A DNA stretch of 62,758 nt. Source: an uncultured Gammaproteobacteria bacterium (lineage in GTDB: Bacteria > Patescibacteriota > Patescibacteriia > VMEV01 > CAYQCH01). The position numbers and the translations under genes were made by a program. The stretch is taken from NCBI GenBank assembly GCA_964352335.1, contig CAYGRO010000008.1, positions 1 through 62,758 of the forward strand, written 5' to 3'. This document shows positions 10,046-45,962 of the stretch, piece by piece. Within the stretch, counting starts at the first letter, position 1, and the number at the start of each line of letters is the position of its first letter. The notes under the pieces were generated by a model. The model was not told the DNA's origin and did not search any database. It saw only the letters and a list, made by a program, of their open reading frames with translations.

Positions 10046-10047
10046 AC

Positions 10048-10278: not shown

Positions 10279-10333
10279 GAGCCGTTGACAAAAGTAACTA
10301 TTAACGATAAACTCCCCTATTCACAAAAAACCT

Positions 10334-10573
10334 ATGCCTGAACAAATCGACCATCAATACGTACAAAAAGCTATTGTAAAAAAGATCAACTCAGAACAAG
10401 CTGAGCTAGAGTTGGTTGATGGTCAAATCCTTCTCTGGCCTAAAAATCTTTTACCTTCTGATCTAAACATAGGAGATACTGTTCGTATCTTAGTACATGA
10501 TAAAAAAACAGAAGAAGAGGAACGTAAAAAATTAGCAAAAGCATTACTGAATGAAGTGATGCATTCAGACTAA
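10334..10573 (+). CDS. hypothetical small protein
   Basis: 79-aa low-GC ORF with a Lys/Glu-rich C-terminus. Convergent with the DHH gene, with a 4-nt overlap. Confidence 0.45.
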   Translation: MPEQIDHQYVQKAIVKKINSEQAELELVDGQILLWPKNLLPSDLNIGDTVRILVHDKKTEEEERKKLAKALLNEVMHSD

Positions 10574-11538
10574 ATGATTTTAATCCCATCTTCAAATTCT
10601 TGAATCCGCCCATCGACTGTAAACCCGGCGGATTTTTTATGCCCACCGCCCCCCATTGATGTTGCCAATAAAGCGAGGTCAACATCATTATGGTACGTTC
10701 GCATACTTGCTTTTACTTTCCCTCCGTCGCGTTCAGAAAAAACAATAACGGCGCGAGCATCGTTTAATTGACTCAAATAATTCGACAAGCCATCTATTTC
10801 TTCTGGGTCTATTCCTGTTTCAATAAAATCTTGACGTAGAATATAAGTATAAGCAATTCCTTGTCCTGTTTGTTTAATGCGAGACATAATTGTCCCCCAA
10901 AACTTCATTACAGAAATACTTTTATTGGCGATAGTTGCTCGATGAATTTCTGGAATCGATGCTCCTTTTTTAACAAAATGTGCAGCCATTTCTAAAGCTT
11001 GTTTATTTGTTGCAGCATTTGAAAACCCTCCCGTATCTGTAAAAACACCCGTCATAAGGCAGATTGCCATTGATTTTGTAATAGCAATTTTATTTTCTTG
11101 TAAAAATTGATAAACAACTTCTGCGGTAGACGAAGCAATTATATTTACTAAGTTCACATCTCCAAATAATTTATTACTTGCATGATGATCAAAGTTAATA
11201 ATCTTTGGCTTCTTTTTCATGCAATCAATAAAGGTTTGTACTCCAGCATATTGCAAGTCTCCAGAATCACAAGCAATGATAAGATCCCACTCCTCTTCAA
11301 ATAGCGCTGGATCATTTTTCACAAGATGGGTATTTGGCAAAAATGATAATTGCTCTGGGACTTTATGTAAACAAAAAACATTCACAACTTTCCCCTGTCC
11401 CTGTAACCAATCTAAAAGTGTTAATGACGAACCAGATGTATCTCCATCAGGCTTTTGATGAGCCACAATTAAAATACGCTTTGATTCATTCATCAATTCA
11501 TAGGCTAATCGCAAATTTTCTGGACTCAATGTATTCAT
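10570..11538 (-). CDS. DHH/DHHA1 phosphoesterase (NrnA-like oligoribonuclease/pAp phosphatase)
   Basis: Motifs HQKPDGDTSGS, NFDHHASN and GGGH are present. Start set at MNTLSPENL, preceded by the SD ggggaagagg. Confidence 0.82.
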   Translation of the reverse strand: MNTLSPENLRLAYELMNESKRILIVAHQKPDGDTSGSSLTLLDWLQGQGKVVNVFCLHKVPEQLSFLPNTHLVKNDPALFEEEWDLIIACDSGDLQYAGVQTFIDCMKKKPKIINFDHHASNKLFGDVNLVNIIASSTAEVVYQFLQENKIAITKSMAICLMTGVFTDTGGFSNAATNKQALEMAAHFVKKGASIPEIHRATIANKSISVMKFWGTIMSRIKQTGQGIAYTYILRQDFIETGIDPEEIDGLSNYLSQLNDARAVIVFSERDGGKVKASMRTYHNDVDLALLATSMGGGGHKKSAGFTVDGRIQEFEDGIKII

Positions 11539-15961: not shown

Positions 15962-16258
15962 TTAATACCAAGGAAGGAAAAACCGTATGACATCTAACCA
16001 AAAATCATCATTATTTTTATAATCATAGGTAAGTAAGACCAAAAGTACAATAAGCAGAAGATAAATCCCAATATCAAGCAATACTGAAAGAAGAAAACTC
16101 ATCAATGGATGTTGAAAAGGAAAGATGAGCTGAATATTCACGAAAATAAGTGGTAATAAAACGAAAAAAAACAAGAGAAGTATTACTGAAACCACTTTCC
16201 GAAAAAATAATTTCTTTTTATCTTCTTCCGAATGAATAGTTATTTTATTCTGTTTCAT
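15962..16258 (-). CDS. hypothetical small membrane protein
   Basis: 98-aa low-GC ORF with 2-3 hydrophobic helices. Confidence 0.45.
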   Translation of the reverse strand: MKQNKITIHSEEDKKKLFFRKVVSVILLLFFFVLLPLIFVNIQLIFPFQHPLMSFLLSVLLDIGIYLLLIVLLVLLTYDYKNNDDFWLDVIRFFLPWY

Positions 16259-16295
16259 CTGTGGTTATATTAGCATGCTCTAATGAATAATCAAT

Positions 16296-16329
16296 AAAAA
16301 AACTCCGCCATAGTTGACGGAGTTTTTTT
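16296..16329. terminator. Bidirectional hairpin terminator
   Basis: An A-run, then stem actccg/cggagt, then a T-run. Confidence 0.5.
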
Positions 16330-16403
16330 GTCCCACGAACTTGCCTGGTGGCTTATTCATGGGAATGGAACGGCTATCTGGAAATGGCCGCACCACTTAC
16401 CGA

Positions 16404-17807
16404 CTAGTGCCGGCGATCCCAAGGATTGCGCTTGGGCTTGTGACGGACCTTGTCGCAGATCGTCATGCTCTTCTGGCGTGCGAGCACGAATGAGGCAAAC
16501 AAGTCGATCTCGCGAAGAGTTTCGTCGATGGGAATGTAGAAGTAGTCCGAGAAGACTACCTCACACAACCAATCTGCGTACTCCAAGCAAAAGGGACATT
16601 CTCGCTTCAGCAATTCCACGACGACCTTGAAGATCTCCTCACGGTGAGGAAATAGCAAGTCCAGCAATCTCCTGAAGACCCTCTGCGTGATCTTGAGAAG
16701 ATGCCCGCGCTCGTAAGCGTTGGCAAGTCGTGAGAAAAGCTCTTCAGCGGTCGAAGAAGAACTGACCCACTCGAGGTCACGAAACCCCTGAGCAGTAGCC
16801 TTGGCTTCTTCGAACAAGTATTCGAAGCGAGCCAGCTCCGTCTCGTAGGTCGCCCCCGGTTGCAATGAGGCACTAATCGCACGTGCGAGTCTGGCGGGAT
16901 CCTTGATCTGCGCTTCCTTGAGGTTGCGCAGGATGGTTCCCGGCTTGATTCGCTTGCAGCGACTACCGATGAGCGATGTGTAGTAGTCACGTAGATTTTG
17001 CTTTTCTTCTTGTACCTTTGACTCAGCCGATATCTCAGCAACGAGACGTTGGTAATCGGCAGCCTGGGGAGCTGAGAGCTCGATTTCGTATCGGACTTCT
17101 TCGAACCGATAGTAGGCATTAATCAATTCTGCCTCCTTGTTGAGTAGATCGATTGCCTTCTTGGTGTCTGTCACCATGAGATGACGAATCTGCTGGAGCA
17201 CGCCCTCCGCCATCTGTTCTTGACGATGAAGAAGTGTCGTCTCCAGCTTGAGACGAAGTTCTGCAACCTGCTCACCACCAGCCTCAACGACAAGTGGGTC
17301 GGCCGAACGAATGATCTCCAGAGCTTGCACGATATCACCGAAGACGAACTCACTGAAACGGCTGAAGGAAACAACCGCGTGAATCTGATTGAGGAAGTAC
17401 TCAACTTCCCCTGCCATCTGGCTGAGCTGAGCACGATGACCAGCATCAACCAGCACTTGCTGTTTGATGATTTCCTGTGCGAGCTTTCGCACCGCACTTG
17501 GCTTGATCGGCTCAATACCAACCAAAGCCTTGGAGTTACGCCAGGCTTGCCGTGCCTGTTGCTCAAACTCACGGGCTCCTTCGAGATCAGCTCGCTGCAA
17601 AGCAGCTAAACCATATTCGATGTTCTTATCGAATTCGAGTTGGAATCCATGAAGCTTCGCCAAGAGCCCTAGATCAACGGAACCAGGCTCATCATGAATC
17701 TCAGTTCGATGCGCCTCGATGGAAGCAACCATCTTCTTCGGGCAGGGCTTTGCACTCTGCATGCCGTGCTTGCTCTTCTTCTTTCGCTTACTCTTCGAAC
17801 GACTCAT
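16404..17807 (-). CDS. hypothetical alpha-helical protein with Lys-rich N-terminus (GC-rich cassette E)
   Basis: 467-aa high-GC ORF. Start set at MSRSKSKRKKKSK, preceded by the SD gagagagg. No family recognised. Confidence 0.7.
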   Translation of the reverse strand: MSRSKSKRKKKSKHGMQSAKPCPKKMVASIEAHRTEIHDEPGSVDLGLLAKLHGFQLEFDKNIEYGLAALQRADLEGAREFEQQARQAWRNSKALVGIEPIKPSAVRKLAQEIIKQQVLVDAGHRAQLSQMAGEVEYFLNQIHAVVSFSRFSEFVFGDIVQALEIIRSADPLVVEAGGEQVAELRLKLETTLLHRQEQMAEGVLQQIRHLMVTDTKKAIDLLNKEAELINAYYRFEEVRYEIELSAPQAADYQRLVAEISAESKVQEEKQNLRDYYTSLIGSRCKRIKPGTILRNLKEAQIKDPARLARAISASLQPGATYETELARFEYLFEEAKATAQGFRDLEWVSSSSTAEELFSRLANAYERGHLLKITQRVFRRLLDLLFPHREEIFKVVVELLKRECPFCLEYADWLCEVVFSDYFYIPIDETLREIDLFASFVLARQKSMTICDKVRHKPKRNPWDRRH

Positions 17808-17934
17808 GAGAACCTCTCTCATTGAAATTGGAAAGACCAACCACCTATTTCTAGGGGAAGCCACAATCGTATGGCCTTTTTTATTGCTAAAATAAGCAAT
17901 TTTTAAGGATCTACGATTATTAGAAAACCATTGC

Positions 17935-17963
17935 ACAATAACATTTTTTATTGTTCTTGTCAA
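17935..17963 (-). promoter_or_regulatory. sigma70-like promoter for cassette E
   Basis: TTGACA, 17-nt spacer, TATTGT on the minus strand, followed by an AT-rich leader of about 125 nt. Confidence 0.45.
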
Positions 17964-17974
17964 TAGCTATCAAT

Positions 17975-18010
17975 TGTAAAACAAAAACCCTAGTCTACAA
18001 GAGAACTAGG
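17975..18010 (-). terminator. Terminator following the tRNA-Leu 3' fragment
   Basis: Hairpin cctagt/actagg, then gtttttgtttt on the minus strand. Probably the original tRNA-Leu terminator. Confidence 0.5.
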
Positions 18011-18017
18011 ATCTTTG

Positions 18018-18040
18018 TGGTACCCGGGGCGGGACTCGAA
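18018..18040 (-). repeat. 23-bp direct repeat of the tRNA-Leu 3' end (att-like)
   Basis: tggtacccggggcgggactcgaa is identical to 20005-20027. Confidence 0.9.
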
Positions 18041-18517
18041 ACCACCTAGACCGAAATCGGAACTTGGCTGAACTCGGCGATTCTTCGCTAAGGCTAGCGC
18101 GAACTGAGGACGCTGGGAGACCTCTCTACTCTCCAGGAATACCCCGCTTTCGTCAGCTCTTGGGCAACCGGTGGGCAACAATATCTACCCAGACTGGATG
18201 GTGTTCCTCCTTGCCAGCTCCTATGCCAGACAGTCAGCAGACGTTCTCGACTGCTGGCTGCTCGCCCTTATGAAGCAACTCCAGCAAGGTCGCGGGCGGG
18301 CGAAGTGGGGCCTCATTGCATACGGTTACGCCCCTCAACGGGTCGAATGTGACACTCTGGGAGAGGGGGGGGGCGGCGTTGACACCCACCTGGCCGTACA
18401 TGTATGTTGTGGTAGGATCGTAGTGACTTGCCGAAGATGCACTGGTAACACGTCTGTGAATGATTGGTGTCCCGCCTGCAAAGAGAAAGCTTCCCTTTGC
18501 AGGAAGGCACCCCAATC

Positions 18518-18871
18518 ATGCACTCTTCTCAACCGTCCTCCGATCAAGCGTCCCCTGAGTTCGGCGTAGGCCTGCCAATTGAACTCCTCGCCTACTACTT
18601 GGCAGTAGCAAGCAAGAGCAATCGGACAATTTTCCACGCTGACAACCGTAAGATCACGTTGGAAGCGATTCTCACTTACTACCCATATCTCGTCGGAGAC
18701 GCAAACCCCTGCACGAGCTTTCATCCTGGGGTGCAGGCATGGGAGCTCGCAAGCTTTGTAAACCTGCACCGCCGCCATGTAGCGCCTCGCGAAGTAGCTT
18801 CTTCTCGAGACCCGCGAATCGTCTGGAGCAGCGCACTAGAGATAGCGCATCGCCTCCCTCCACGTCCCTAG
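18518..18871 (+). CDS. hypothetical protein inside the tRNA-Leu-associated element
   Basis: ATG preceded by aggaagg. Hand count over 73 codons gives GC1 42, GC2 30, GC3 46. A strong terminator follows. An antisense ORF in the exact mirror frame competes with it. Confidence 0.35.
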   Translation: MHSSQPSSDQASPEFGVGLPIELLAYYLAVASKSNRTIFHADNRKITLEAILTYYPYLVGDANPCTSFHPGVQAWELASFVNLHRRHVAPREVASSRDPRIVWSSALEIAHRLPPRP

Positions 18872-18898
18872 GCAGCCACGCTACCTCCGGCCCCCGAT

Positions 18899-18943
18899 AC
18901 ACCCCCTGCTTCTCACGAAGTAGGGGGTGTTTTTTCGTTTTTT
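18899..18943 (+). terminator. Rho-independent terminator inside the element
   Basis: 9-bp stem acaccccct/agggggtgt, followed by tttttcgtttttt. Confidence 0.7.
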
Positions 18944-18958
18944 CTCTCGGCTATCACA

Positions 18959-19341
18959 CTACTTCGTGGGATCTGAGTCGCCGTAGAGCCAAACCTCCCT
19001 CGGCAGAGTCCCGGGGCTGTCAGCGAACGTTCCACTAGCCGAAACGGTGAAGTCCTCAACAACGGCGAAGTCGCCGAAGGAGTCGGGGGAGTATCGGCGC
19101 AGTCGGAGATGCTCGTCTCCCGCAACGGTCGAGGACTTCGCCCCACAGAACGCATTACCTCCGATCTCAGCGGCCTGCTAGGGTAACCCGTGCTCAGCAC
19201 GCCAGACAGGGGCAGCAAGACTCGCTTGGCTCCGTTCTCGTCGCGACCTTCGGGCCCCAACTCCAGCGTCACCAGCACCTTGCGAGGCGTCCGACGTCCC
19301 TGTACAATTCCGATAAGAGAGGGGATATCTTGGATCGCAAC
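18959..19341 (-). pseudogene. frameshifted ORF remnant
   Basis: Two protein-like reading segments (..VLVTLELGPEGRDENGAKRVLLPLSGVLSTGYP and QAAEIGGNAF..VEDFTVSASGTFADSPGTLPREVWLYGDSDPTK*) lie in different frames. There is no ATG or SD. Confidence 0.3.
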
Positions 19342-19521
19342 TCAAACCCCAGACACTGCACAGCAGGCGGGCGCCCGAGCATCGGAATTGTGACGGCTCT
19401 AGCCAACGAAGAACGGTGCGTGCTTGGAAGGCCGGGATTCGAGGTTAGGAATTGAGTGAGTGAGGCTTAGTGTTGGCTTGCAGATTCTCTGCGGGCCTGA
19501 CTGAGCCTCACGGAGTTGGAA

Positions 19522-19737
19522 ATGAATAGCATACAAGACAATTCGCAGCAGCAGCGCCTCCTGTTCAGCAGGGATCGCGAAGGACGCCCTTTGTATCTCT
19601 GGAAGCCAAAAGGAGCTGGGCTTGACATTTACGTCGGGCGGATCAGGTTTGAACGTTCGTCAGAAGACAGCGAGAAGGACATCGAAGAGGTACTTCCCTT
19701 GTGGCACCGTATTCTACGGTTCTTTACGGGGATCTGA
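19522..19737 (+). CDS. hypothetical small protein inside the element
   Basis: 71-aa ORF with GGAG 6 nt upstream of the ATG and a terminator about 100 nt downstream. Confidence 0.3.
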   Translation: MNSIQDNSQQQRLLFSRDREGRPLYLWKPKGAGLDIYVGRIRFERSSEDSEKDIEEVLPLWHRILRFFTGI

Positions 19738-19835
19738 TCTTCCTCCGGCGCGGATAGCAGACAACATAGCTGAGTAGCGGTCCGCCGCCACAATGGCCGA
19801 CGATCTGCGTCCAAGCGGATCGTCGCGAAGCCTGC

Positions 19836-19874
19836 GAGCACCTCCTTTTCGGGGAGTGCTCGTTTTCCATTTCC
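19836..19874 (+). terminator. Rho-independent terminator inside the element
   Basis: Stem gagcacctcc/ggggagtgctc, followed by gttttccatttcc. Confidence 0.5.
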
Positions 19875-20004
19875 TGGTTTTCTCCTCCCGATACTCTGCC
19901 GGCGCCGCGTTAGCGCCTGGGCAGTCACGCGTTTGACTTTTGGGCAACCGGCGGGCAACCAAATTCTCAGCAATAATAAAAGCCCCTTAAAAAGGGACTT
20001 TTAC

Positions 20005-20089
20005 TGGTACCCGGGGCGGGACTCGAACCCGCACGTCCAATGGACACAAGATTTTAAGTCTTGAGCGTCTACCATTCCGCCACCCGGGC
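20005..20089 (-). tRNA. tRNA-Leu (anticodon UAA), CCA encoded
   Basis: Folded by hand: acceptor gcccggg/cccgggt, anticodon stem caaga/tcttg with loop ctTAAaa, a long variable arm, T arm gcggg-ttcgagt-cccgc. Confidence 0.92.
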
Positions 20090-20096
20090 TTGTGTT

Positions 20097-20128
20097 ACAA
20101 CTAACCTTTGACAACTAACAACTGACTT
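20097..20128. repeat. Left 32-bp inverted repeat flanking the four-helix-bundle gene
   Basis: acaactaacctttgacaactaacaactgactt. 29 of 32 positions are complementary to 20528-20559. Confidence 0.85.
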
Positions 20129-20130
20129 GA

Positions 20131-20505
20131 CTACTGACTACTCTTTAAGAGGTGTTTTCTGAAAGCTGAGAGTTGGTCAATTATTTTAGTGGCTTTTGTA
20201 AGATAGATAATGTGCACTTGTGTGTCAATGTATTTTAGATCAAGCGCGACATCTAAACAGGCAATTACTTCATTAAGTGAAGTTAATGACCTATTGAGAA
20301 ATAACGCAAAGTCTTTATCGGTAGACCTATCTGCTCCTTCAGCAATATTGAGCACAACTGATAACGTAGCCCGCTCTATTTGAGAACCAAGAATATATCT
20401 TTCATCTACAGGAAATTTTGATTTACTCAATTTTTTAATCTGCTTTAGGAAAACCCTCGCATTTTTGTAAACAGGAAAGTCTCTAAACCGCAAAGAAGTA
20501 CTCAT
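20131..20505 (-). CDS. four-helix-bundle protein (23S rRNA intervening-sequence protein family)
   Basis: 124-aa ORF with the family pattern FPVYKNARVF ... QIERATLSVVLNIAEGADRSTDKDFALFLNRSLTSLNEV. Confidence 0.85.
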   Translation of the reverse strand: MSTSLRFRDFPVYKNARVFLKQIKKLSKSKFPVDERYILGSQIERATLSVVLNIAEGADRSTDKDFALFLNRSLTSLNEVIACLDVALDLKYIDTQVHIIYLTKATKIIDQLSAFRKHLLKSSQ

Positions 20506-20527
20506 ACATCCTTGGGACAGATTATAA

Positions 20528-20559
20528 AAGTCAGTTGTCAGGCGTCAAAGGTTAGTTGT
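20528..20559. repeat. Right 32-bp inverted repeat flanking the four-helix-bundle gene
   Basis: aagtcagttgtcaggcgtcaaaggttagttgt, the reverse-complement partner of 20097-20128. Confidence 0.85.
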
Positions 20560-20578
20560 TCAATATTCAAATCTCCAA

Positions 20579-20653
20579 TGGGGTGCCTAGAGGGAATTGA
20601 ACCCTCGATAAAGGCACCACAAGCCTCTGTGTTACCACTACACCATAGGCACC
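20579..20653 (-). tRNA. tRNA-His (anticodon GUG) with encoded G-1 and CCA
   Basis: Folded by hand: acceptor gtgccta/taggcac, D arm gtgt/acac, anticodon loop ttGTGgt, T arm gaggg-ttcaatt-ccctc. An extra 5' G lies opposite discriminator C. Confidence 0.9.
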
Positions 20654-20824
20654 CCGCTAGAGATTTATAAACAAAAGCCCTGCCCTTTTGCTCTGCAGCA
20701 AAATTGAACAGAGATCATGTGCAGATACTATAATCAGTTTTTTGATTTGAGTCAATATCAAAGTAGAAAGCCCCATCATAGACGACAAGGCTCTCTTGTC
20801 CATCCGATTTGGGGCACTAGAACG

Positions 20825-21238
20825 TTACGCACCTTTAATCCAGAGGCTAACCATGGGGGTTCCCTTTGCCTTAGGCGAAATACGGATGAGTCTCTCGGTC
20901 TGAAGCTTTCGAAGATAGTGCTTGATCAGCGACTCTTCGAGCCCCATATCTCTGGCGAGCTTTGCAACGGACCTATCGCCGTCATGCGTTAGAAAACGCA
21001 AGATCTCGCATGCGGTATGGCCGTTCACGTCAACGGCCCTCGCGCCTTGTTTCTTGACCCGTGCATGTTCGTCGTCGATGTGGTCGTGGCTAGTGAGCAA
21101 TTCCTTGACGTACGGAAGTTCATCAAGGTGATCACTGCAGTAGGGTTTTTGTTCGCTTGGTCTTTTAGCACACCCAGAGTGTGAACACCGCCCTGAACGA
21201 CGACGCCCTTCTTCTCTAGGAATCTCAAGATATCGCAT
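20825..21238 (-). CDS. hypothetical DNA-binding-like protein (Cys/His motif plus C-terminal winged-helix-like region; cassette F)
   Basis: 137-aa GC-elevated ORF with CSHSGCAKRPSEQKPYCSDH near the N-terminus. The C-terminal LARDMGLEESLIKHYLRKLQTERLI resembles a wHTH recognition region. Confidence 0.55.
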   Translation of the reverse strand: MRYLEIPREEGRRRSGRCSHSGCAKRPSEQKPYCSDHLDELPYVKELLTSHDHIDDEHARVKKQGARAVDVNGHTACEILRFLTHDGDRSVAKLARDMGLEESLIKHYLRKLQTERLIRISPKAKGTPMVSLWIKGA

Positions 21239-21341
21239 GAGGATCACTCTCTTTCCTGTTAGAATACCGATCCAGAATTACCAAGTAGATTATACCAAAT
21301 AATTCTCAACCTCCCTCTTCGCTTTTACAAACGAAGAGGGA

Positions 21342-21761
21342 TTAGTCCTCTGAATAGTAGAGCTGGTTGTTTTTGAAAACGAAGAAGCGCTGTTCTGGCC
21401 ACGCTTGCGAACGCCTCTTCCATTGAAGGAGAAAAAACAACTGGTAATCTAGTTGAAAGTGCCTCGCCAGTTTCATCTGGTAGGCGCCACTGTGTAAACT
21501 ACCAAGGTCAATCCCTTCTTGCGTATAGATATCAAACCCGTTTCCAGGCAAATCCACAGAACGCAAGGCAGTGACTTTACTCATCTCTAGAGGAAAACGG
21601 AATTGCAAAATGAACGCTTGCTCATCTACGAACCATCTCCCTACCATGCCCTCTCCCAGCTCGACCTCATGCCAGTTGGCTGGGTCTTGTTGAGGAGGAA
21701 GTGAAGAACACCCCATCGCCGATACAACGACGAGGAGAAAAAGAGTCGTGATCCGACGCAT
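21342..21761 (-). CDS. hypothetical lipoprotein (cassette G)
   Basis: 139-aa ORF with the signal peptide and lipobox LLVVVSAMGC. Confidence 0.6.
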   Translation of the reverse strand: MRRITTLFLLVVVSAMGCSSLPPQQDPANWHEVELGEGMVGRWFVDEQAFILQFRFPLEMSKVTALRSVDLPGNGFDIYTQEGIDLGSLHSGAYQMKLARHFQLDYQLFFLLQWKRRSQAWPEQRFFVFKNNQLYYSED

Positions 21762-21905
21762 AATCGCTCCTTATGTTGTTTGGCGAGTAGTATTTTATAG
21801 CAAGAAAAAAGTTACAAGTCAATGAAGTAGTCATTTACCTCCCCTGCCTACCTTCTAAAGCTAATGAAGGGGCAAAGAAAAGTATGTAAAATAAAAAAAA
21901 CCTTG

Positions 21906-21979
21906 TGTACCCAGATGGAATCGAACCATCAACCTACAGCTTAGAAGGCTGTTGCTCTATCCAATTGAGCTATGGGTAC
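21906..21979 (-). tRNA. tRNA-Arg (anticodon UCU)
   Basis: Folded by hand: acceptor gtaccca/tgggtac, D arm gctc/gagc, anticodon stem acagc/gctgt with loop ctTCTaa, T arm gatgg-ttcgatt-ccatc. CCA is not encoded. Confidence 0.9.
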
Positions 21980-22075
21980 ACAAGGTTTTCTTTTTGTATA
22001 ATGTGCAATCTAACTTTCACAACAAAGATAATAAATGCTTGTTGTATTGAAATCTATTCTAACCACACTCTTGTT

Positions 22076-22137
22076 GCTTAGAAGCCTGCCTGCCGGCAGG
22101 CAGGGCTGTTGCTCTATCCGATTGAGCTATGGGTACA
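22076..22137 (-). pseudogene. tRNA-Arg(UCU) 5'-half pseudogene interrupted by a 20-bp palindrome
   Basis: Copy of tRNA positions 1 to about 40 (one substitution) with cctgcctgccggcaggcagg (22085-22104) inserted between the anticodon stem and loop. No variable region, T arm or 3' acceptor strand follows. Confidence 0.8.
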
Positions 22138-22254
22138 CAAGAGATTCAATTTGTATGCCACCCAGTTTCCTGGAAAAGACAGTATTCAATCTGTATCAAA
22201 AAGGCTGGTGAACCAGCCTGTAGAGAATGTATCGAACTTTTTGGCTTGGGTCAA

Positions 22255-23766
22255 CTATTCTGACTTTTTCTCTTTTCTTGCTTGTTCCTTTTTCTCAGTT
22301 TGCTCATTCACTTTTTTAGCTTCTTCTTTGACTCCTTCGTCTTGCCTACTTAATGCCAAAGCCATCGCTTTATCGTTTTTAACTGGGAAATTAATCGCCA
22401 TTTGGGTTCCAACATCTTTAATACTATCGACTAAAATTTCCCCTTGCATTAATTCAATCAATTGTTTGGTAATCCATAAACCAAGACCAGTTCCTTTAAT
22501 ATGTTCGGTTTGTTCTGTTTTAACGCGGTAGAATTTTGTAAATAATCGTTCACGTTGTTTTTGGGTCATTCCTAAACCAGTATCTGCGCATTTTATTTCG
22601 ATGATATTTTCTTCTGGTTTATAAATGGTTGTAATTGTCACAGAACCCTTTGGAGTATATTTAATTGAATTACCAATAATATTTACCAAAATTTGTTTTA
22701 AGCGCCCCGCATCTAATAAGAGTTTTGGTAATGGTTCACTTGGTTTTTCGTAGACAAATTGTAAGTTATTTTGATCAGCTTGAACTTTTAATTCAGCCAT
22801 TACTTGTTCAATAACTGGCTCAACTTGCAAAATTTCATAATTGATTGTTAAACGACCTTGTTCAATACGAGAGACATTTAATAAATCTTCAACAAGATCA
22901 TTTAATCGATCGGCAGAACCAAGCATCATGGCAACTTTTTCATGAGCAAGATCAGGAATTTCTCCTAAGGAACCCTCATTCATCATCGATAAATATCCAC
23001 GCAAACTCGTAATCGGAGTACGTAATTCATGAGAAGCCATTGAAATGAACTCATCTTTAAGTTGTTCTACTTCTTTTAATTTTTTTGCAAGAACCGCGTA
23101 TTGGAATAACCGTGTATTTGCAATCAATAATAACATCACAATAACAACAGCCAGTGTCAAAATAAGATAAGACCGAATCAATGTTTGCCGAACAAGTTGA
23201 TCGACAATATCTAAAGACATATTCAAATTTAACAAAGCTTTTTTCTCTCCATCTACCCCAATAAGTGGAATTGTCACCGACCAAAACCGTTCTTGTAAAT
23301 CATCAAATAAACGTGTCGCCAATGGGTCATCTTGGCTCAATACGGAAGCATTTGTTAAGTTAGCAATTGCTTGTTTCTGATGCCAAGCAATAACATTAAT
23401 AAGCACATCTGTTTTTTGATCTATTTTTTGCTCCTGTAAACTTGCAATATATCTAAAATCTTCACCATCTGGAATTAAAATATCTGCAATACGAATATCG
23501 GGATTCAATTCAGCTACTCGCTCTAAAGAAACTTGTAACTTTTCTATATCATCTAAATCTTCTTGCAAAGCACCATTAAATACTTCAGCTAAACTTAAGG
23601 CTTGTCTTTGTAATTGAATATCAATATTCCCCTTAAACGAATTGGTAATCCATACAGTATTTGCAACGATGGCAGACGGAATTAAAATAATTAAAAGAAC
23701 AGCATAGATAATTTGCCAATACCTTTTTAACTCTCTGATATTTTCTTTTATATTTATTTTGGGCAT
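22255..23766 (-). CDS. sensor histidine kinase (orphan)
   Basis: 503-aa ORF with an N-terminal TM, the H-box SHELRTPITSLRGY, the HATPase motifs NSIKYT and GTGLGL, and a Lys/Glu-rich C-terminal tail. Confidence 0.9.
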   Translation of the reverse strand: MPKINIKENIRELKRYWQIIYAVLLIILIPSAIVANTVWITNSFKGNIDIQLQRQALSLAEVFNGALQEDLDDIEKLQVSLERVAELNPDIRIADILIPDGEDFRYIASLQEQKIDQKTDVLINVIAWHQKQAIANLTNASVLSQDDPLATRLFDDLQERFWSVTIPLIGVDGEKKALLNLNMSLDIVDQLVRQTLIRSYLILTLAVVIVMLLLIANTRLFQYAVLAKKLKEVEQLKDEFISMASHELRTPITSLRGYLSMMNEGSLGEIPDLAHEKVAMMLGSADRLNDLVEDLLNVSRIEQGRLTINYEILQVEPVIEQVMAELKVQADQNNLQFVYEKPSEPLPKLLLDAGRLKQILVNIIGNSIKYTPKGSVTITTIYKPEENIIEIKCADTGLGMTQKQRERLFTKFYRVKTEQTEHIKGTGLGLWITKQLIELMQGEILVDSIKDVGTQMAINFPVKNDKAMALALSRQDEGVKEEAKKVNEQTEKKEQARKEKKSE

Positions 23767-23786
23767 GCGGTTTAGAGTTTCCCAAA

Positions 23787-23888
23787 TACCTCACCCCGGC
23801 CCTCTCCTACATAGGAGAGGGAGGTATGGATATTAGAAATTTTTTGATACTTCCCCCTCTTAGGATAGGAGGGGGTTAGGGGGAGGTA
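23787..23888. repeat. MITE-like nested-palindrome element, family 2, copy 1
   Basis: Termini tacctcacccc / gggggaggta. Internal hairpins are cctctcct-acat-aggagagg and ccccctct..aggaggggg. Confidence 0.6.
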
Positions 23889-23891
23889 ATT

Positions 23892-26800
23892 TTAGCTAAA
23901 TCCTTTTTGAGCTCTTAAGTAGTAGAAGAACATTACACCACCTAGTAAAACGATTAGTAGCCCACCTACTAAATAATAGGCTAAGAAAATATTCGAATCA
24001 TCTTGTACTGTTAAATTTGCATTTAAGAAATCTTCTTCATTTACCGCTTTCGCTTCTTGCACGAAGAAACTTAGGGCACGAGACTTCTTTACAATCTTCC
24101 CAGTATCATTAGTAACGGTTGCATAAACATCATGTTTACCGTCTACCAATGGATGAGTAAAGTCATACTCCCAATCACCACTTTGATTTGCTTGTACAGT
24201 TACTACCACTGGTAATGATGAGTAGATATATAGAGTAACAAAACTATTCGGCTCGGCTTTTCCACGAATATTTAAGTTTGATTCATTTTCTAATACATCT
24301 AATGATGTTACTCCATCTACCGTAATGGTTTCTGCTATAACCCCAGCAAACCTTGGTTGATCTAATGGGCGATTATTTAAAATCGCGATATCTGTTGGCG
24401 CTGTTGTTATTGATAATAATCCAGGACCATTAGGGTTAAATCCATTTTTGACTTCTTCCCCATCTGTAAATCCATCATCGTCAGAATCGGGATTATTTGG
24501 ATCTGAACCATAACGTAATTCAGCATCATCAGATAAACCATCTCCGTCTTTGTCGATAACAAGTACAGCGTCTACTGTTTGTTCCACAAAACGTCGAATA
24601 TTTGCGGGTGGTTTTGTAGATGGTGAGATTAAGAAATTACTTTGTCTTGCTAATTTAGGATTAATTGGCAAGATTTCAGATAATGGTTGAGAGAGATTTT
24701 TTTGTGCTTGACCTGGTTTACTAAAATCTCTTTCTGTTGATGTTCCATCATTAAATTCAATATGACGAGAAACAATATCATTCAATTGACCAGCAACAGC
24801 CTCTTGTTCTCCTTCATCTAAGATACGAATAGAACGAGTCGTTAAATATTCTTTACATTCAGCTTCAGTTTTAATACCAACAACCTGACATTCAATTGCA
24901 ATCTGTAATACTTGCCCATTTGAATCTACATTTTCTAAAACCTGTGTAGGAATTATTTCTTCTGGCCGAGGTTCTGTTAATGGAGTTGAAGGTGTTGGTG
25001 CTTGAATAATAACTGGAGCTGTTTCAGCAACTAAGTTAAATGTTCTATTTGGTAATGTTGCTTGTTGCCCACCTTCTGTTACGATATTAGTTTTCAAAAT
25101 TACAGCACCAGCTTGAATACCAGCAGTATTCCAAGTAGCTTCATAGAGATTTTTTGCTTGATTGAATTTACCAGTAACAATTTTTGTACCATTAGCAGCT
25201 GTTTGTAAATTAAATGTTACCGACTTAATTGCCCCACTAATTTGTGCTTGAATCAAGACAATTCCACTTGTTGATTGTCCATTGGTTGGTCGCACAATGC
25301 TTCCACCAGTAAAGACATTTTCTTCTACAGGTGCAGGATTATTAATTGTCACGGTAATAGGCCCTGCATTTAATGTAGCACCGTCGTCTTGTGCAGTTGT
25401 TACCATTCGCAATGAATAACTTCCATTTAGGTGTTTTGTTGTATCTAAAAGATAATGCCAGATGCTATTTCCATTATGTTGAACTGGTTTAAACGCTTTC
25501 GTGCTAATACCTGCTAAAACATTTTGACCCGCAGTATTTACGAGTAAAACTGTTGGCTCAGCAATAGCTTCACTTCCAGTCATGATAACGAGAGAATTTG
25601 ATCCTTGTAATGATGTATTCACGGCTGGCTGTGTAATCGTCAAACTCGCAGGAGCATTTGGTGGTACCGGCGCTTCATTTGTACAGATAGCAGAACACCC
25701 ATCTCCACTCACATTATTCCCATCGTCACATTGTTCACCTGTATTAAGCGTTCCATTTCCACAAGAAGTTGGTGGCGTTGGAGCGGGATTTACTATAAGA
25801 CTAAATGTTTTTGTGGCTGTTCGATTAGCAGAATCTGTAACAGTAAAAGAAAGATTATATGAACCTACTGTTGTTGGAATACCTGTAATCGCACCCGTAT
25901 TTCCATTGATTGAAAGTGATGGTGGAAGAGCAAATCCAGAGGTAACAGACCAAACAAGTGGTGTTGTTCCTCCAGTTGCAGAAATTGTTTGACTATAAGC
26001 AATACCAAGCTGAGCTGATGGTAAAGTATTTGTGGTAATTACTGGTGGTGTCCCAGTTGCTTGGTTATTGATTGTGAATCCAACAACATCACTGAAGACT
26101 GTTTCTCCATTAATGGTTCCGAAAAGAATCACAGAATAGTCTCCATTTGGGTAGGTTGTGGAGTCGAAAGAAGATTGGAAACTAATAGAATCTCCAGATG
26201 AATTCACAGCAGAAATTATATCTTGTGCTGATGAAGCCCCAGGTGTTATTTGAAAGTTAACATTACTAGCTACAGAAGAAGAACTTCCGGTAAATGAAAC
26301 ATTCGTTCCAGAAACAATTTGACCCTGATCAGGATTACTCAATGAAAATGTGCCTTGAATGGCAGTGGTATTTTGAACATTTACCTGAATAGAAGTGCTC
26401 GATGTTTCTTCACCGTTTAAACTTGCAACACCAACAATTGTGTAAGCACCATCAGGCAAAACTGTTGAATCTAAACTATGTGTCCACTCATCTCCTTGTG
26501 AAGCATTACCTTGAAATTCTTGAACAGAACCTGATTGAGAAGTAAATCGAAACAAAACAGATTGAGGAGCAGGATTGACGGCAACTGTTAGATCTTGATT
26601 TCCAGTGATGGTAGAATTTGCTGAAGGTGACCGCCAAATCACATCTAACACAACTCCAGACAGAACAACTATTGTTGTAGATTGAGTTACCTGACTACCG
26701 GTTTGAGGATTTACAGCAATCGCATCGATTTTGTAATCAGCAGCTTCAGTGAGTAAAATTGAAGACGTAAAATTAGTAAATGTAGGGTCTACATCCGCAT

Positions 26801-27077
26801 TTTTTGTAACAACTACACCACTTGTCTGATTTGTGATAACAAAGCTCAGTTGCGTCACGGGTGAAGCAGTAGTAGCTGATAAACTGACTATGTCACCTTG
26901 TTGAAACGTTTGTGAGGCAGAAGGTGAATTGATCGTAATAAAAGGTGCTGTTTGAGCTGCTGTAATTCCAGCAGAAGCCAATAAAAGAACAGCTGAATGG
27001 AACATTAATGTTAGTGAAACTAAAAATGCTCCCCAAAAACCGATATGAAAATTATAGATATGATGTCTACCCCTCAT
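23892..27077 (-). CDS. large cell-surface protein (Ig-like repeats, Cys-rich repeat, TSP3-type Ca-binding repeats, C-terminal TM anchor)
   Basis: 1061-aa low-GC ORF with a signal peptide, repeated beta-sandwich-like segments, CGNGTLNTGEQCDDGNNVSGDGCSAIC, DKDGDGLSDDAELRYGSDPNNPDSDDDGFTDGEE and a C-terminal hydrophobic helix. Confidence 0.8.
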   Translation of the reverse strand: MRGRHHIYNFHIGFWGAFLVSLTLMFHSAVLLLASAGITAAQTAPFITINSPSASQTFQQGDIVSLSATTASPVTQLSFVITNQTSGVVVTKNADVDPTFTNFTSSILLTEAADYKIDAIAVNPQTGSQVTQSTTIVVLSGVVLDVIWRSPSANSTITGNQDLTVAVNPAPQSVLFRFTSQSGSVQEFQGNASQGDEWTHSLDSTVLPDGAYTIVGVASLNGEETSSTSIQVNVQNTTAIQGTFSLSNPDQGQIVSGTNVSFTGSSSSVASNVNFQITPGASSAQDIISAVNSSGDSISFQSSFDSTTYPNGDYSVILFGTINGETVFSDVVGFTINNQATGTPPVITTNTLPSAQLGIAYSQTISATGGTTPLVWSVTSGFALPPSLSINGNTGAITGIPTTVGSYNLSFTVTDSANRTATKTFSLIVNPAPTPPTSCGNGTLNTGEQCDDGNNVSGDGCSAICTNEAPVPPNAPASLTITQPAVNTSLQGSNSLVIMTGSEAIAEPTVLLVNTAGQNVLAGISTKAFKPVQHNGNSIWHYLLDTTKHLNGSYSLRMVTTAQDDGATLNAGPITVTINNPAPVEENVFTGGSIVRPTNGQSTSGIVLIQAQISGAIKSVTFNLQTAANGTKIVTGKFNQAKNLYEATWNTAGIQAGAVILKTNIVTEGGQQATLPNRTFNLVAETAPVIIQAPTPSTPLTEPRPEEIIPTQVLENVDSNGQVLQIAIECQVVGIKTEAECKEYLTTRSIRILDEGEQEAVAGQLNDIVSRHIEFNDGTSTERDFSKPGQAQKNLSQPLSEILPINPKLARQSNFLISPSTKPPANIRRFVEQTVDAVLVIDKDGDGLSDDAELRYGSDPNNPDSDDDGFTDGEEVKNGFNPNGPGLLSITTAPTDIAILNNRPLDQPRFAGVIAETITVDGVTSLDVLENESNLNIRGKAEPNSFVTLYIYSSLPVVVTVQANQSGDWEYDFTHPLVDGKHDVYATVTNDTGKIVKKSRALSFFVQEAKAVNEEDFLNANLTVQDDSNIFLAYYLVGGLLIVLLGGVMFFYYLRAQKGFS

Positions 27078-27141
27078 AAGATAAATAAGTCAAGATAAGT
27101 ATTTATATTATAACATAAAAATTAAAACTCATGGAAATGAA

Positions 27142-27172
27142 GAAGCCCAACCGTTAATGCCGGTTGGGCTTC
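27142..27172 (-). terminator. Hairpin terminator of cassette H
   Basis: 12-bp stem gaagcccaaccg/cggttgggcttc. Confidence 0.5.
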
Positions 27173-27207
27173 GAATGTTTTACATGCCTGGAGAGGCATG
27201 CCCACGG

Positions 27208-29529
27208 TTAAGGCGTGGAAACGCCGTACTGTGTGGGACCGCCGCCGCTTCGACCGAGGTTGTAGGGCAGCAGAGCGCTAGTCGTGTCCGTGAAGGAGTG
27301 GTAGTACTTCGAGCTCACGCTGGGGCTCGAGACCTTCATGTCGACGACTTGCCGACCGACAGCCAGAGACACGTAGCTCGTAGCAGTCACGGAGACTGTC
27401 TTGGTAGCTCCACCATCGAACGGGATGATACGGAATTCCGCACCAGCTCCGCCCTGAACACCGAGAACGAATGCATTCATCCCAGGAGCACGGACCATCT
27501 CAACACCAAACTGATTGGTGCCAAGCGCCACACTCCCAAGGAAGTTGTAGCCGTTTGCGGGGTCATGGAAGGTATAGGAGCTCTCTCCTTGACGGATCAC
27601 CACAACGCGCAAGTCGTTGTTTTGGTCGCGGTATCCTTGAACACCGAGAACCTTGTTGGTACTTCCACCAGTAGTCTGTCGGGTTCCGACCTGCGGAGAC
27701 ACTCCCGTGCCGATGACGTAGACCCGGTGATCAGTGCCAGGACCAACCACACTCTGACCAGCCATCTCGACCCGGTACACGCTGTTCTCGAAGTCGAGGT
27801 ACATGCACGTAGCCTGAGGGGCGAACTGACCGAGGTCGGTCACGCTGTACACGCCGTTGTCCAGGCGAACCTGGAACAGTTTGCGCACCGTGCCACCAGC
27901 AACGATGAGGGCGTACTCGACGCCATCGGCGATGACCGTGTGGAGACCACAGACGTTCGCACTGCCAGCAGGAAGCTGCTGAGTAGCGACGTTGAAGTGG
28001 ACCTGAGTCTGGACCTGAGTCATGTCGTGGTTGAGCATCCACAGACGGTAGAAGCCCGAGGGCTCCTGCGTCAGGAATACCGGCCGACCGTTCTTGGTCG
28101 TCGTCATGAGCGAAGGCGACTGGTTCGTAGCCGGCGACGTGTTGATGTTGGTGCTAACCGCAGCCACACCTCCAGTCGCATCGACCTTGAACAGGTGAAC
28201 CTGGAACCCGGTGAAACCGAGACCCCAGACCGTCTTGCCGTCGTTCATGGCAGCGAACGAGCTTGCGGCAGCCCACTTGTGGCCGATCCCGGCGTAGATC
28301 TGGCGAAGGTTGTTCGCCTGACCGACAGCGTTGAGATCGTAACCCTGCATAGTGCCGTCGAAGTTGGTCGTCGTGTCGTCACCACCGTGCACCACCGTGC
28401 TACCGGTAGCGTGCGCATACTTGAGCGTCGGACCGACTCCTGTGACCTGAGCCTGCTCGAGCATGACCGTCGGGTTGTTCTTGTCGTACGCAGCCAGCGT
28501 GACAGAGAACGTCCCGGGGGTGCCCATCTTCGGGGCGTGGAACAGCAGGTGTCCGTCGTCGTTGATCATGACGGGGTACTCGACCCCGTTGACCCGCGCC
28601 TTCAGAATCCTGTTGACCATGTCCTTCTTGAAGTTGAGCCCACGGAGCTCGATCAGCTCGTTGCTCACTACCGTGAACACGTTTGCCTCAGTCTCGTTCC
28701 CGACGAGCGGGATACCGAGATTGGCCGCACCGATGATGGTGAGCGGATTGCTCACCGGCGGGTTGGTGCTGTTCACCGTCACCGTCGCAGTCGCGGTTCC
28801 GACGTTGCCGTCGGAGTCCGTGAGCGTCAGCTTGACGTTGAACGTGCCAACCGAGGTGTAGCTGTGGGTCGCCGAACCGCTGGTAGTGCTCTCGTTGGCG
28901 CCGTCGCCCCAGTCAATGAGACCGGAAACGTTGGAGCTGTCCGAGTCGTCGACCGTCCACGAAGCCGTGGTGGTCAGCGATCCAGTACCGCTGGTCACGC
29001 TCAGACCGAAGTTCTGGGCCTGCGGGTTGTCCTGCACCGTGATGGTGTACTCAGGAAACTCTGCGGACCCAGCTTGTCCGGTGACTCGGAAGACGTACTT
29101 GTACGCCCCCCCTTCGTTCGGCTTGTCCCACGTGATCTTCACGTTGAACAGGCGCGTCGCGGTCGATCCCGGAGAACCGGGAACCGTGATGCCCGCAGCG
29201 GTCGACTCCGTGACAGTGATCTGGAAGTCACCGGAGTTGAGCTGGGTGGGGTTGTTGCTGTTCTGGATGATCGAGACCATCCCAGCGTTGAGCGTTTCGG
29301 CCGAGTCCATCTCGACCTGGAACGTGACCTCGACCCCCTTGGGGGTACTCGAGGACACAACCGTGTCCTGGACCGAGCCTACCGCCTTGGGCTTGGTGGT
29401 GTTGCTGGGCGAAGTGCCCCCTCCACCACCACCTCCGCCACCGCCGCAACCTGCGGCGAAACTGGCGAGACCCATCACTACCGCGATGGATCCGATGGAC
29501 CAAAAGGCCCCACTCTTCTGACTCTTCAT
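27208..29529 (-). CDS. PKD-domain lipoprotein (GC-rich cassette H)
   Basis: 773-aa high-GC ORF. Start at MKSQKSG with the SD aggag. It has the lipobox LASFAAGC followed by Gly10, the PKD signature IDWGDG..THSYTSVGTFNVKLTLTDSDG, and a beta-rich C-terminal part. Confidence 0.8.
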   Translation of the reverse strand: MKSQKSGAFWSIGSIAVVMGLASFAAGCGGGGGGGGGGTSPSNTTKPKAVGSVQDTVVSSSTPKGVEVTFQVEMDSAETLNAGMVSIIQNSNNPTQLNSGDFQITVTESTAAGITVPGSPGSTATRLFNVKITWDKPNEGGAYKYVFRVTGQAGSAEFPEYTITVQDNPQAQNFGLSVTSGTGSLTTTASWTVDDSDSSNVSGLIDWGDGANESTTSGSATHSYTSVGTFNVKLTLTDSDGNVGTATATVTVNSTNPPVSNPLTIIGAANLGIPLVGNETEANVFTVVSNELIELRGLNFKKDMVNRILKARVNGVEYPVMINDDGHLLFHAPKMGTPGTFSVTLAAYDKNNPTVMLEQAQVTGVGPTLKYAHATGSTVVHGGDDTTTNFDGTMQGYDLNAVGQANNLRQIYAGIGHKWAAASSFAAMNDGKTVWGLGFTGFQVHLFKVDATGGVAAVSTNINTSPATNQSPSLMTTTKNGRPVFLTQEPSGFYRLWMLNHDMTQVQTQVHFNVATQQLPAGSANVCGLHTVIADGVEYALIVAGGTVRKLFQVRLDNGVYSVTDLGQFAPQATCMYLDFENSVYRVEMAGQSVVGPGTDHRVYVIGTGVSPQVGTRQTTGGSTNKVLGVQGYRDQNNDLRVVVIRQGESSYTFHDPANGYNFLGSVALGTNQFGVEMVRAPGMNAFVLGVQGGAGAEFRIIPFDGGATKTVSVTATSYVSLAVGRQVVDMKVSSPSVSSKYYHSFTDTTSALLPYNLGRSGGGPTQYGVSTP

Positions 29530-36977: not shown

Positions 36978-37005
36978 CTGTGACGAAAAGAAAAGCCGGG
37001 GCCCC

Positions 37006-45844: not shown

Positions 45845-45962
45845 CATTGGAGTTAAGTGAGAATTTTGTCCCCATAGCTATTGCAGTTGCGGAGAAAAAG
45901 GAGATTTTACTTCTATCAAGAAAATTGATCATACTAGTTGCAACCACCTTGAAACGACAACT

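Follow-up and report, generated by a model that had tools for sequence, protein, structure and literature searches.

A GC-rich segment at tRNA-Leu(UAA) is bounded by direct repeats of the tRNA 3' end

The 62,758-bp stretch of DNA analysed here (contig CAYGRO010000008.1, called the window throughout) is a piece of bacterial chromosome that encodes TsaD, RNase J, IF-2, YibE/F, SMC and ValRS. Beside its tRNA-Leu(UAA) gene lies a segment of 2 kb (positions 18018 to 20027), which is the element considered in this report. Its interior has a GC content of 52 to 65%, compared with 29 to 37% in the AT-rich stretches that flank it. The nearest relatives of YibE/F among GTDB species genomes were found in one metagenome-assembled genome (MAG) at 65% identity and in two Patescibacteria/Saccharibacteria MAGs at 45 to 47%, and the host is probably a member of the Patescibacteria. 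As a whole the element reaches 57% GC against about 36% for the contig, a difference that suggests a recent arrival from a GC-richer donor.

A 23-bp sequence, TGGTACCCGGGGCGGGACTCGAA, marks both ends of the segment in direct orientation. It occurs exactly twice in the window, where shuffled sequences lead one to expect no copies, and the similarity between the two runs on to 26 nt with a single mismatch. The right-hand copy is the 3' end of the intact tRNA-Leu(UAA) gene. On the tRNA strand it reads TTCGAGT-CCCGC-CCCGGGT-A-CCA, corresponding to the T-loop, the 3' strand of the T-stem, the 3' acceptor strand, the discriminator base and CCA. Beyond the left-hand copy, on the minus strand, a hairpin with a predicted folding energy of -16.9 kcal/mol is followed by the U-run UUUUUGUUUU; this hairpin had escaped the consensus terminator scan because of its long loop. 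The intact tRNA gene has an AT-rich hairpin and U-run of its own (-14.8 kcal/mol).

Direct repetition of a tRNA gene's 3' part, the intact gene standing at one end, is the arrangement left by tRNA-targeted integration. An earlier interpretation made from the letters of the DNA (the sequence-only reading) had reported the 23-bp repeat, assigned it attL/attR geometry and taken the distal hairpin for the displaced terminator of the tRNA, and all three proposals were borne out. The AT-rich hairpin of the intact gene had not been mentioned there. The same reading had described a 20-nt direct repeat near both ends of the segment. This repeat is real, and no further copy occurs in the window even at three mismatches; its left copy was correctly placed at 18160, while the right copy begins at 19940 rather than 19941.

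In the Logan assembly of run ERR3534985, contigs with 100% identity to the window cover positions 16240 to 18203, across the distal junction, and positions 18206 to 28818, across the tRNA junction. Because these separately built contigs cross both junctions, neither junction is the product of a single assembler, although the window itself may come from this run. The contigs end at 16240, at 18204-18205 and at 28818. The 2-nt gap at 18204-18205, the one break in their coverage of the segment, lies inside the element, 25 nt past the left copy of the 20-nt repeat, and may reflect a local variant or a drop in coverage.

The 20-nt repeat is the hallmark of a family of tRNA-targeting elements

What the sequence-only reading overlooked is that the 20-nt repeat is the hallmark, and putatively the recombination-arm motif, of a family of elements. 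The motif, TTGGGCAACCGGNGGGCAAC, is made up of two GGGCAAC heptads set 11 bp apart. It has exact matches in at least 120 stretches of metagenome contigs, and the double-heptad or FGQPVGN-tail family is defined here from loci L006 to L128. As the loci were found by exact motif match, conservation within the set is partly there by construction; this selection bias is lessened, though not removed, by the unselected partner copies of the motif (0 to 3 mismatches) and by a set of integrases gathered on protein similarity. The motif had no match among 2.9 million IMG/VR viral contigs, and a literature search that covered open-access full text found no paper containing it.

Among the matches listed, the motif occurs at least 184 times in at least 152 distinct contexts at up to three mismatches, and an integrase-family open reading frame (ORF) runs through it in at least 50 contexts. 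These ORFs are about 330 to 420 codons long, carry the motif in their 3' end and match a family-specific integrase hidden Markov model (HMM); in them the motif reads F-G-Q-P-V-G-N, about 20 residues past the catalytic ...RYAHL.... An intact tRNA gene lies 45 to 116 nt downstream on the opposite strand in at least 24 loci, and the tRNA targets cover 11 specificities (Ser, Gly, His, Glu, Leu, Cys, Trp, Met, Pro, Ala and Ile), both among the matches listed. Between this copy of the motif, designated P', and the tRNA 3' end there is usually a bidirectional terminator hairpin in the loci listed, and the order P' motif, bidirectional terminator, tRNA 3' end recurs in L014, L018, L023, L030 and L080.

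In a further arrangement, seen in at least 42 non-identical junctions among the matches listed, a tRNA 3' fragment stands between two direct copies of the motif that are 208 to 299 nt apart. This fragment ends with the T-loop sequence TCGAA or shortly past it. A junction of this kind is either an attP site or the join of two stacked elements. Measured from the T-loop, the position of the second copy, designated P, shows three sharp peaks among the matches listed, at 120-121, 130-131 and 141-143 nt, roughly one helical turn apart.

Motif-bearing DNA spans 27 to 72% GC. The variable central base (CCGG versus CCCG) varies alike in coding and non-coding copies, and the residues flanking FGQPVGN vary in both length and sequence. 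As the P' motif is non-coding in elements that lack an integrase, it seems to be kept as DNA, with the integrase frame merely crossing it.

Both ends of the 2-kb segment have this architecture. At the right end the P' pattern TTGGGCAACC(G/C)G(T/C)GGGCAAC begins at 19940 and is followed, after a hairpin at about 19976 to 20004, by the tRNA 3' end at 20005, with a spacer of 45 nt. At the left end the P motif lies 120 nt from the T-loop, within the 120-121 nt peak. The block of tRNA identity stops at ...GGGACTCGAA, at or just past the T-loop as elsewhere in the family. Read across attL and attR, the layout is P' motif, 45 nt, core, 120 nt, P motif; with the two ends joined, the spacing from motif to motif is 207 nt, beside the 208-nt class represented by L030 and L080. 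The agreement extends to the bases around the motif. The flank CTTTCGTCAGCTC follows the family consensus for the P side, tTT.aTCActTttTGGGCAAC, in its TTT.aTCA..T pattern, and the P side as a whole (CTTTCGTC..CTC plus the motif) is 92% identical over 38 nt to the P copies of the unrelated loci L101 and L017. The P copy matches the 19-nt search consensus TGGGCAACCGGTGGGCAAC at 19 of 19 positions and the P' copy at 18 of 19, the sole difference falling at a position that was left free (N) in the metagenome pattern.

The same attL layout was found in seven integrated elements of other loci (about 1 to 13.7 kb) and in one Candidatus Paceibacterota genome, where a tRNA 3' repeat of 12 to 43 nt (21 to 25 nt in six of the eight) precedes the P motif by 116 to 142 nt. 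Since both of its ends reproduce the attP layout of integrase-bearing elements elsewhere, the attL/attR geometry is strongly supported, and the 2-kb segment is very probably an integrated, integrase-less member of the double-heptad family.

Two groups of loci depart from the usual core. The junctions of L010, L070, L111 and L117 have no tRNA-like fragment between the motif copies and contain GAGTTATCCACAC, which includes the DnaA-box-like sequence TTATCCACA, a hint that a sub-branch of the family integrates at another kind of target. In L009, L049, L050, L053 and L128 the sequence 3' of P' is a core, GCGGGGGCGGGACTTGCAC..., with an atypical T-loop-like CTTGCAC. ARAGORN called no tRNA at these cores; possible targets are a tRNA of unusual or intron-bearing type and some other small RNA.

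The integrase clade of the family is absent from the element

The ORFs that cross the motif encode Pfam Phage_integrase and SAM-like domains. They belong to a clade of at least 1,441 protein clusters (E<=1e-40), whose members' source names include Candidatus Paceibacterota and Candidatus Kaiserbacteria, of the superphylum to which the window's host probably belongs, and whose integrases share less than 31% identity with every integrase in 50,697 phage and 72,556 plasmid records. A search by protein similarity alone gave the 120 closest integrases; G[QH]P[AVI]GN is retained in 92 of these, and most of the others are one-residue variants. The N-terminal 45 or so residues, with the consensus ...WWvDFR....RyRkrSPEN...AYEA.LR..., rank among the best-conserved parts of these proteins.

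In autonomous members of the family, an excisionase-like gene of the HTH_17 type is directly followed by the integrase gene, and the three excisionase-like proteins that we compared are clearly related to one another. The autonomous relatives that were inspected consist of defence-type or unknown cargo, the excisionase-like gene and the integrase; no virion, replication or conjugation genes were seen in them. The autonomous element in L125 (246 to 13640, 13.4 kb) encodes a 1603-aa SF1 helicase/MTES_1575 nuclease, a DUF2779 protein, an HTH_17 excisionase-like protein and an integrase. Another autonomous element, of 6 kb, occupies tRNA-Cys in a Candidatus Paceibacterota genome (L126, 5235 to 11269; integrase at 9731 to 11131), directly beside a tRNA-Leu(UAA), and an autonomous copy from Candidatus Kaiserbacteria lies at 9780 to 11128 of L128.

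The element in the window has neither gene. Neither tblastn with 42 family integrases nor the family HMM, applied to six-frame translations with its filters off, found an integrase in it, and a phmmer search with the excisionase-like proteins found no excisionase. The family-specific HMM thus bears out the sequence-only reading's statement that the segment lacks an integrase. With both the HTH_17 gene and the integrase absent, the window holds a non-autonomous member of the family. An integrase or excisionase pseudogene within the element was also considered and rejected, as the only similarity was the heptapeptide encoded by the motif itself.

Integrase-less members are not confined to this locus. 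Twelve further intervals of about 0.44 to 4.2 kb are bounded by P and P' motifs and show no integrase trace, and some of them follow an integrase-bearing unit in an array (L030, L080 and L031). One element of about 1 kb, in L014, lies at an intact tRNA-Gly and is built like that of the window. Another, between two motif/tRNA-fragment junctions in L100 (933 to 3534), carries a complete Pycsar defence system, consisting of PycTM and two PycC cyclases (PADLOC E-values down to 8e-85). In these integrase-less elements, as in the window, the P' motif is non-coding.

The interior contains two small ORFs between hairpins and terminators

As the sequence-only reading had noted, the GC-rich interior has no ORF longer than 147 aa. 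Codon-position GC periodicity is weak and fits two plus-strand frames, ORF A and ORF B (Table 1). Each is preceded by a sequence resembling a Shine-Dalgarno (SD) site and by a stable hairpin, and each is followed by an intrinsic terminator: both of the plus-strand terminators reported earlier were recovered by the terminator scan, with stems at 18899-18930 and 19842-19856, each followed by a T-run. None of the ORFs of the element had a Pfam or PADLOC match. On the minus strand, the stretch previously described as a frameshifted protein-like remnant could not be confirmed as the relic of a gene; it has no homologue and no similarity to an integrase or excisionase.

Table 1. Features of the element and its borders, in window coordinates
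Feature	Positions	Strand	Basis or remark
Displaced original tRNA-Leu terminator, host-side flank of attL	17975-18017	-	AT-rich, host-like composition; hairpin and U-run
attL core, displaced last 23 nt of tRNA-Leu (T-loop to CCA)	18018-18040	-	Exact repeat
P-arm spacer	18041-18159	+	120 nt from the end of the T-loop to TGGGCAAC at 18161; 119 nt to the 20-mer at 18160
P motif, proposed arm-type integrase site	18143-18179	+	GCTTTCGTCAGCTC then TTGGGCAACCGGTGGGCAAC; 20-mer at 18160-18179
Promoter-like site upstream of ORF A	18379-18408	+	TTGACA, 18 nt, TATGTT; consensus scan only
Stable hairpin over the SD region of ORF A	18463-18516	+	Local z-score -2.5 to -3.9
ORF A, 117 aa, orphan cargo	18518-18871	+	GC-position periodicity
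Intrinsic terminator after ORF A, 14-bp stem and T-run	18899-18940	+	Terminator scan; z-score -3.4
ORF-like stretches in two frames (the "frameshifted remnant")	18959-19341	-	Six-frame reading; no homologue found
Stable hairpin just 5' of the ORF B SD	19459-19512	+	z-score -4.1
ORF B, 71 aa, orphan cargo, GGAG SD	19522-19737	+	GC-position periodicity
Intrinsic terminator after ORF B	19842-19866	+	Terminator scan
P' motif TTGGGCAACCGGCGGGCAAC, non-coding in the window	19940-19959	+	FGQPVGN tail of the integrase ORF in relatives; non-coding in other integrase-less elements
AT-rich hairpin with T-runs on both strands, presumably supplied by the element; would terminate the tRNA after integration	19976-20004		Fold and terminator scan
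attR core, 3' 23 nt of the functional tRNA-Leu, presumably contributed by the element	20005-20027	-	Exact repeat; ARAGORN
Intact tRNA-Leu(UAA), the proposed integration target	20005-20089	-	ARAGORN; Rfam 59.8 bits

A model for integration and for movement in trans

Our interpretation is that the 2-kb segment is a real site-specific insertion in the 3' end of tRNA-Leu, without an integrase of its own and movable only by an enzyme supplied from elsewhere. We put the probability of this reading at roughly 0.7. In the model, the T-loop/acceptor end of the host tRNA-Leu(UAA) would have served as attB and recombined with the attP of a circular element of about 2 kb to give the interval 18018-20027. 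The order within that attP would have been P' double heptad, bidirectional terminator, a 23- to 26-bp copy of the tRNA 3' end, a 120-bp spacer and P double heptad. Integration would thus rebuild the tRNA with a 3' end and a terminator supplied by the element, displacing the host's original 3' end and terminator by 2 kb. The cargo brought in would be two small plus-strand ORFs, of 117 and 71 aa.

The enzyme would be a tyrosine integrase of the FGQPVGN-tail clade, for which the 11-bp-phased GGGCAAC heptads on either side of the core may serve as arm-type sites. We propose, from the position, phasing and conservation of the motif, that the heptads are bound by the conserved N-terminal domain of these integrases, which would provide four arm contacts for a recombinase tetramer; the high conservation of the first 45 or so residues of the clade is what one would expect of a domain that reads an invariant site. 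With arms and cores intact and no enzyme, the element appears to be a substrate dependent on an integrase provided in trans, or in cis by an adjoining related element. The presence of Candidatus Paceibacterota and Candidatus Kaiserbacteria among the source names of the clade makes a helper in this lineage plausible. Of the three possibilities that the sequence-only reading had left side by side (a decayed integrative element, a non-autonomous element mobilised in trans and a carrier of a large structured RNA), mobilisation in trans fits the evidence best, and we see an even chance that this particular copy can still be mobilised.

Several observations weigh against this interpretation. No empty site, circle junction or second copy of the element was found, and the passage of the ERR3534985 Logan contigs through both repeats means that neither an empty-site nor a circular variant is abundant in that sample. 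No tyrosine recombinase or integrase was detectable in the whole 62.7-kb contig, and the motif-crossing integrases have no detected Arm-DNA-bind Pfam domain, which bears on the proposed arm binding. The cargo is without relatives: an exhaustive HMMER search with ORF A returned no homologue among 1.84 billion representatives; three candidate ORFs including ORF B had none in a search that joined them into one query, perhaps at a cost in sensitivity; and neither the motif-bearing metagenome loci nor, at the level of DNA (blastn), the same 50,697 phage and 72,556 plasmid records contained anything similar. AlphaFold2 run without an alignment gave predicted local distance difference test (pLDDT) scores of 41.8 for ORF A and 53.8 for ORF B, uninformative values whose low confidence counts on the same side. 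Finally, low coding density, orphan ORFs and broken-looking minus-strand ORF fragments give the segment the look of a decaying relic. A comparison through the YibE/F relatives, which share at most 65% amino acid identity, gave no informative empty site; in them the tRNA cluster is rearranged and tRNA-Leu inverted. The MAG at 65% identity has the same tRNA neighbourhood, rearranged, and nothing similar to the element.

Much of this would also be accounted for if the segment were an immobile fossil, that is, an integrase-bearing island that lost its excisionase, its integrase and most of its cargo, became a cis-mobilizable element (CIME) by decay and will erode. Low coding density with overlapping sense and antisense ORFs and broken-looking fragments, orphan cargo with poor structure models, a contig without an integrase and the lack of an abundant empty site in the Logan assembly all agree with such a history, and decay to CIMEs is a documented origin of elements of this kind (PMC5704250). 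Against it, no trace of an integrase or excisionase was found, even by the family HMM with filters off; the deletion would have to have ended exactly at the P' motif; the P and P' copies still match the consensus at 19 and 18 of 19 positions, and the cores are identical over 23 bp. Moreover, the twelve other complete-ended intervals are equally without integrase trace, and one of them holds an intact defence operon. We consider decay to immobility the less likely history here, and prefer an integrase-less element that depends on an outside enzyme, or failing that a well-preserved fossil of such an element. A satellite packaged by a helper phage, of the type of the phage-inducible chromosomal islands (PICIs) or P4, would share the small size, the tRNA integration and the lack of autonomy, and the sequence-only reading had spoken of a satellite-type element. 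In the phage sense this found no support: the segment lacks genes for a primase, for packaging, for capsid redirection or for a repressor, nothing of PHROG type tested positive, the motif is missing from the IMG/VR viral contigs, and the inspected autonomous relatives lack virion and replication genes, all of which makes a phage satellite very improbable.

The proposal that the interior is a large structured non-coding RNA, its position between tRNA repeats being incidental, drew on its high GC content in an AT-rich genome, the tRNA neighbourhood and the low coding capacity, and the plus strand of one half (19000 to 19964) indeed gave a folding z-score of -4.5 from only 20 shuffles. Nevertheless, the other half and the opposite strand scored about -2.1, and in 150-nt windows the stability is confined to four discrete hairpins and terminators beside the two ORFs, the remaining windows scoring from about -2.6 to +1.7. 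A search of the element with Rfam 15 matched only the tRNA family, both at the gathering score and at E<=10, and neither the phage and plasmid records nor the motif loci supplied a homologous sequence for covariation, so that we give this reading very little weight. We give scarcely any to an ordinary tandem duplication of tRNA-Leu or to an assembly chimera of GC-rich foreign reads with the host contig. Another partial tRNA duplication (the 5' part of tRNA-Arg) and several GC-rich islands do occur in the window, but the similarity between the two copies of the tRNA-Leu repeat ends after 23 to 26 nt and the flanks are non-homologous, where a tandem duplication would have left homologous ones; both junctions recur in the separately built Logan contigs, and the ends fit a family-wide architecture that neither process would create. 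A transposon related to insertion sequences (IS) or to miniature inverted-repeat transposable elements (MITEs) was rejected, as no inverted repeat pairs the ends of the element and the repeat that is there is 23 bp of tRNA in direct orientation.

Comparison with known tRNA-targeted and cassette systems

PMC5704250 cites Pavlovic 2004 and Bellanger 2011 for the definition of CIMEs, from islands of Streptococcus thermophilus related to ICESt1/ICESt3, and describes CIMEs as arising by decay from integrative and conjugative elements (ICEs) or integrative and mobilizable elements (IMEs). The element in the window agrees with the definition given there, as it keeps attL and attR without genes for integration or transfer (PMC5704250), and the relatives in L030, L080 and L031 that stand in tandem with integrase-bearing elements show the arrangement expected of accretion. 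No neighbouring element lies in the window; tandem arrays exist in its relatives. It differs from CIMEs in that neither it nor the twelve other integrase-less intervals show an integrase relic, in that these elements are very small, at 0.44 to 4.3 kb, and their inspected autonomous relatives show no conjugation genes, and in its likely host, which is one of the Patescibacteria and not of the Firmicutes.

Sublocation classes of integration within tRNA genes were reportedly set out by Williams in 2002. A lambda-type integrase element that uses the T-loop of a tRNA gene is mycobacteriophage Ms6, integrated at tRNA-Ala (PMC1762012). As in elements of this type, the block of identity runs from the T-loop to the tRNA 3' end, integration would regenerate the tRNA, and direct repeats flank the core on both arms, at about 60 and 140 bp, in the manner of arm-type sites. 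Unlike them, the element in the window has no integrase gene, the 19- to 20-bp putative arm motif of its family is constant over at least 11 tRNA specificities and from 27 to 72% GC, and the integrases of the clade are only distantly related (below the 31% identity given above) to those in phage and plasmid records.

Tycheposons of Prochlorococcus are described as tRNA-targeted tyrosine-recombinase elements with cargo and defence genes (bioRxiv 10.1101/2020.12.28.424599). They resemble the double-heptad elements in leaving partial tRNAs, in stacking in tandem at the same tRNA and in leaving degenerate remnants in streamlined genomes. A shared double-heptad motif and complete integrase-less cassettes were not found in the searched passages of that preprint, the comparison being one of descriptions. 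The hosts and habitats also differ from those described there, the family coming from soil and groundwater metagenomes and from genomes of the Candidate Phyla Radiation (CPR).

Integron cassettes offer a further parallel: small or promoter-poor cargo, no recombinase of their own, one recombination site each, and possible arrays lying downstream of the gene for a tyrosine recombinase, examples being L030, L080 and L031. The recombination site, however, is an attP-like duplex of about 210 to 300 bp with putative arm motifs and a tRNA fragment instead of a folded single-stranded attC, and the target is a tRNA gene instead of attI. The integrases of the clade score 55 to 83 bits, far below the cut-off of 265 bits for integron integrases.

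The near-invariant, phased double-heptad motif across many tRNA targets, the complete integrase-less cassettes and the occurrence in CPR genomes appear to be new, and the tRNA-targeting family to which they belong is apparently large and undescribed. More tentatively, and at rather less than even odds, these elements may constitute an undescribed cassette system in which integrase-less cassettes with complete attP-like sites would be inserted, excised and stacked at tRNA genes by one integrase clade; the common arm motif would let any resident integrase of the right core specificity move any cassette, an exchange resembling that of integrons. If so, genome-reduced Patescibacteria and other soil and groundwater bacteria could exchange defence and accessory genes across large differences in GC content.

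At the locus itself, an odd GC-rich and gene-poor block becomes a defined mobile-element insertion with mapped ends, and tRNA-Leu is marked as an integration hot spot in a small genome, probably of the Patescibacteria. Mobile elements of CPR bacteria are poorly known. If the motif is an arm site and the cassettes move in trans, metagenomes could be searched by this simple signature for integration modules and the cargo they carry, and there would be a plausible route of gene flow into CPR bacteria.

Other features of the window

Further islands of 50 to 61% GC lie at 16331-17810 and at about 3.8-4.7, 7.2-8.2, 27.1-29.6, 42.9-44.4 and 60-61.1 kb, and hold mostly ORFs without a Pfam match; none of them contains the double-heptad motif. 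The first includes a GC-rich gene of 467 aa (16404 to 17807), just beyond the distal end of the element, whose product matches only itself among 5.8 billion proteins. We considered this gene as part of a larger island and rejected the idea: it lies outside the repeats, no copy of the motif is nearby, and its far end showed no third tRNA fragment.

On the other side of the element, between tRNA-His and tRNA-Leu, a gene of the 23S_rRNA_IVP family (20131-20505, minus strand; Pfam 2e-25) is bracketed by inverted repeats of 32 nt at 20097-20128 and 20528-20559 that are 91% complementary, with related arms at 155-179 and 2662-2686. The interval 20097-20559 looks like an intervening-sequence-type cassette inside the tRNA cluster. 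At 21947-22156, the 5' 33 nt of tRNA-Arg(UCU) and 20 nt upstream of it are duplicated 157 nt away at 89% identity. The 104 nt between the duplicates hold the palindrome CCTGCCTGCCGGCAGGCAGG, which also occurs within a MITE-like 125-nt repeat at 1133-1257 and 36863-36987. The tRNA-Ile gene at 45773-45845 has the anticodon UAU, an uncommon way among bacteria of reading AUA.

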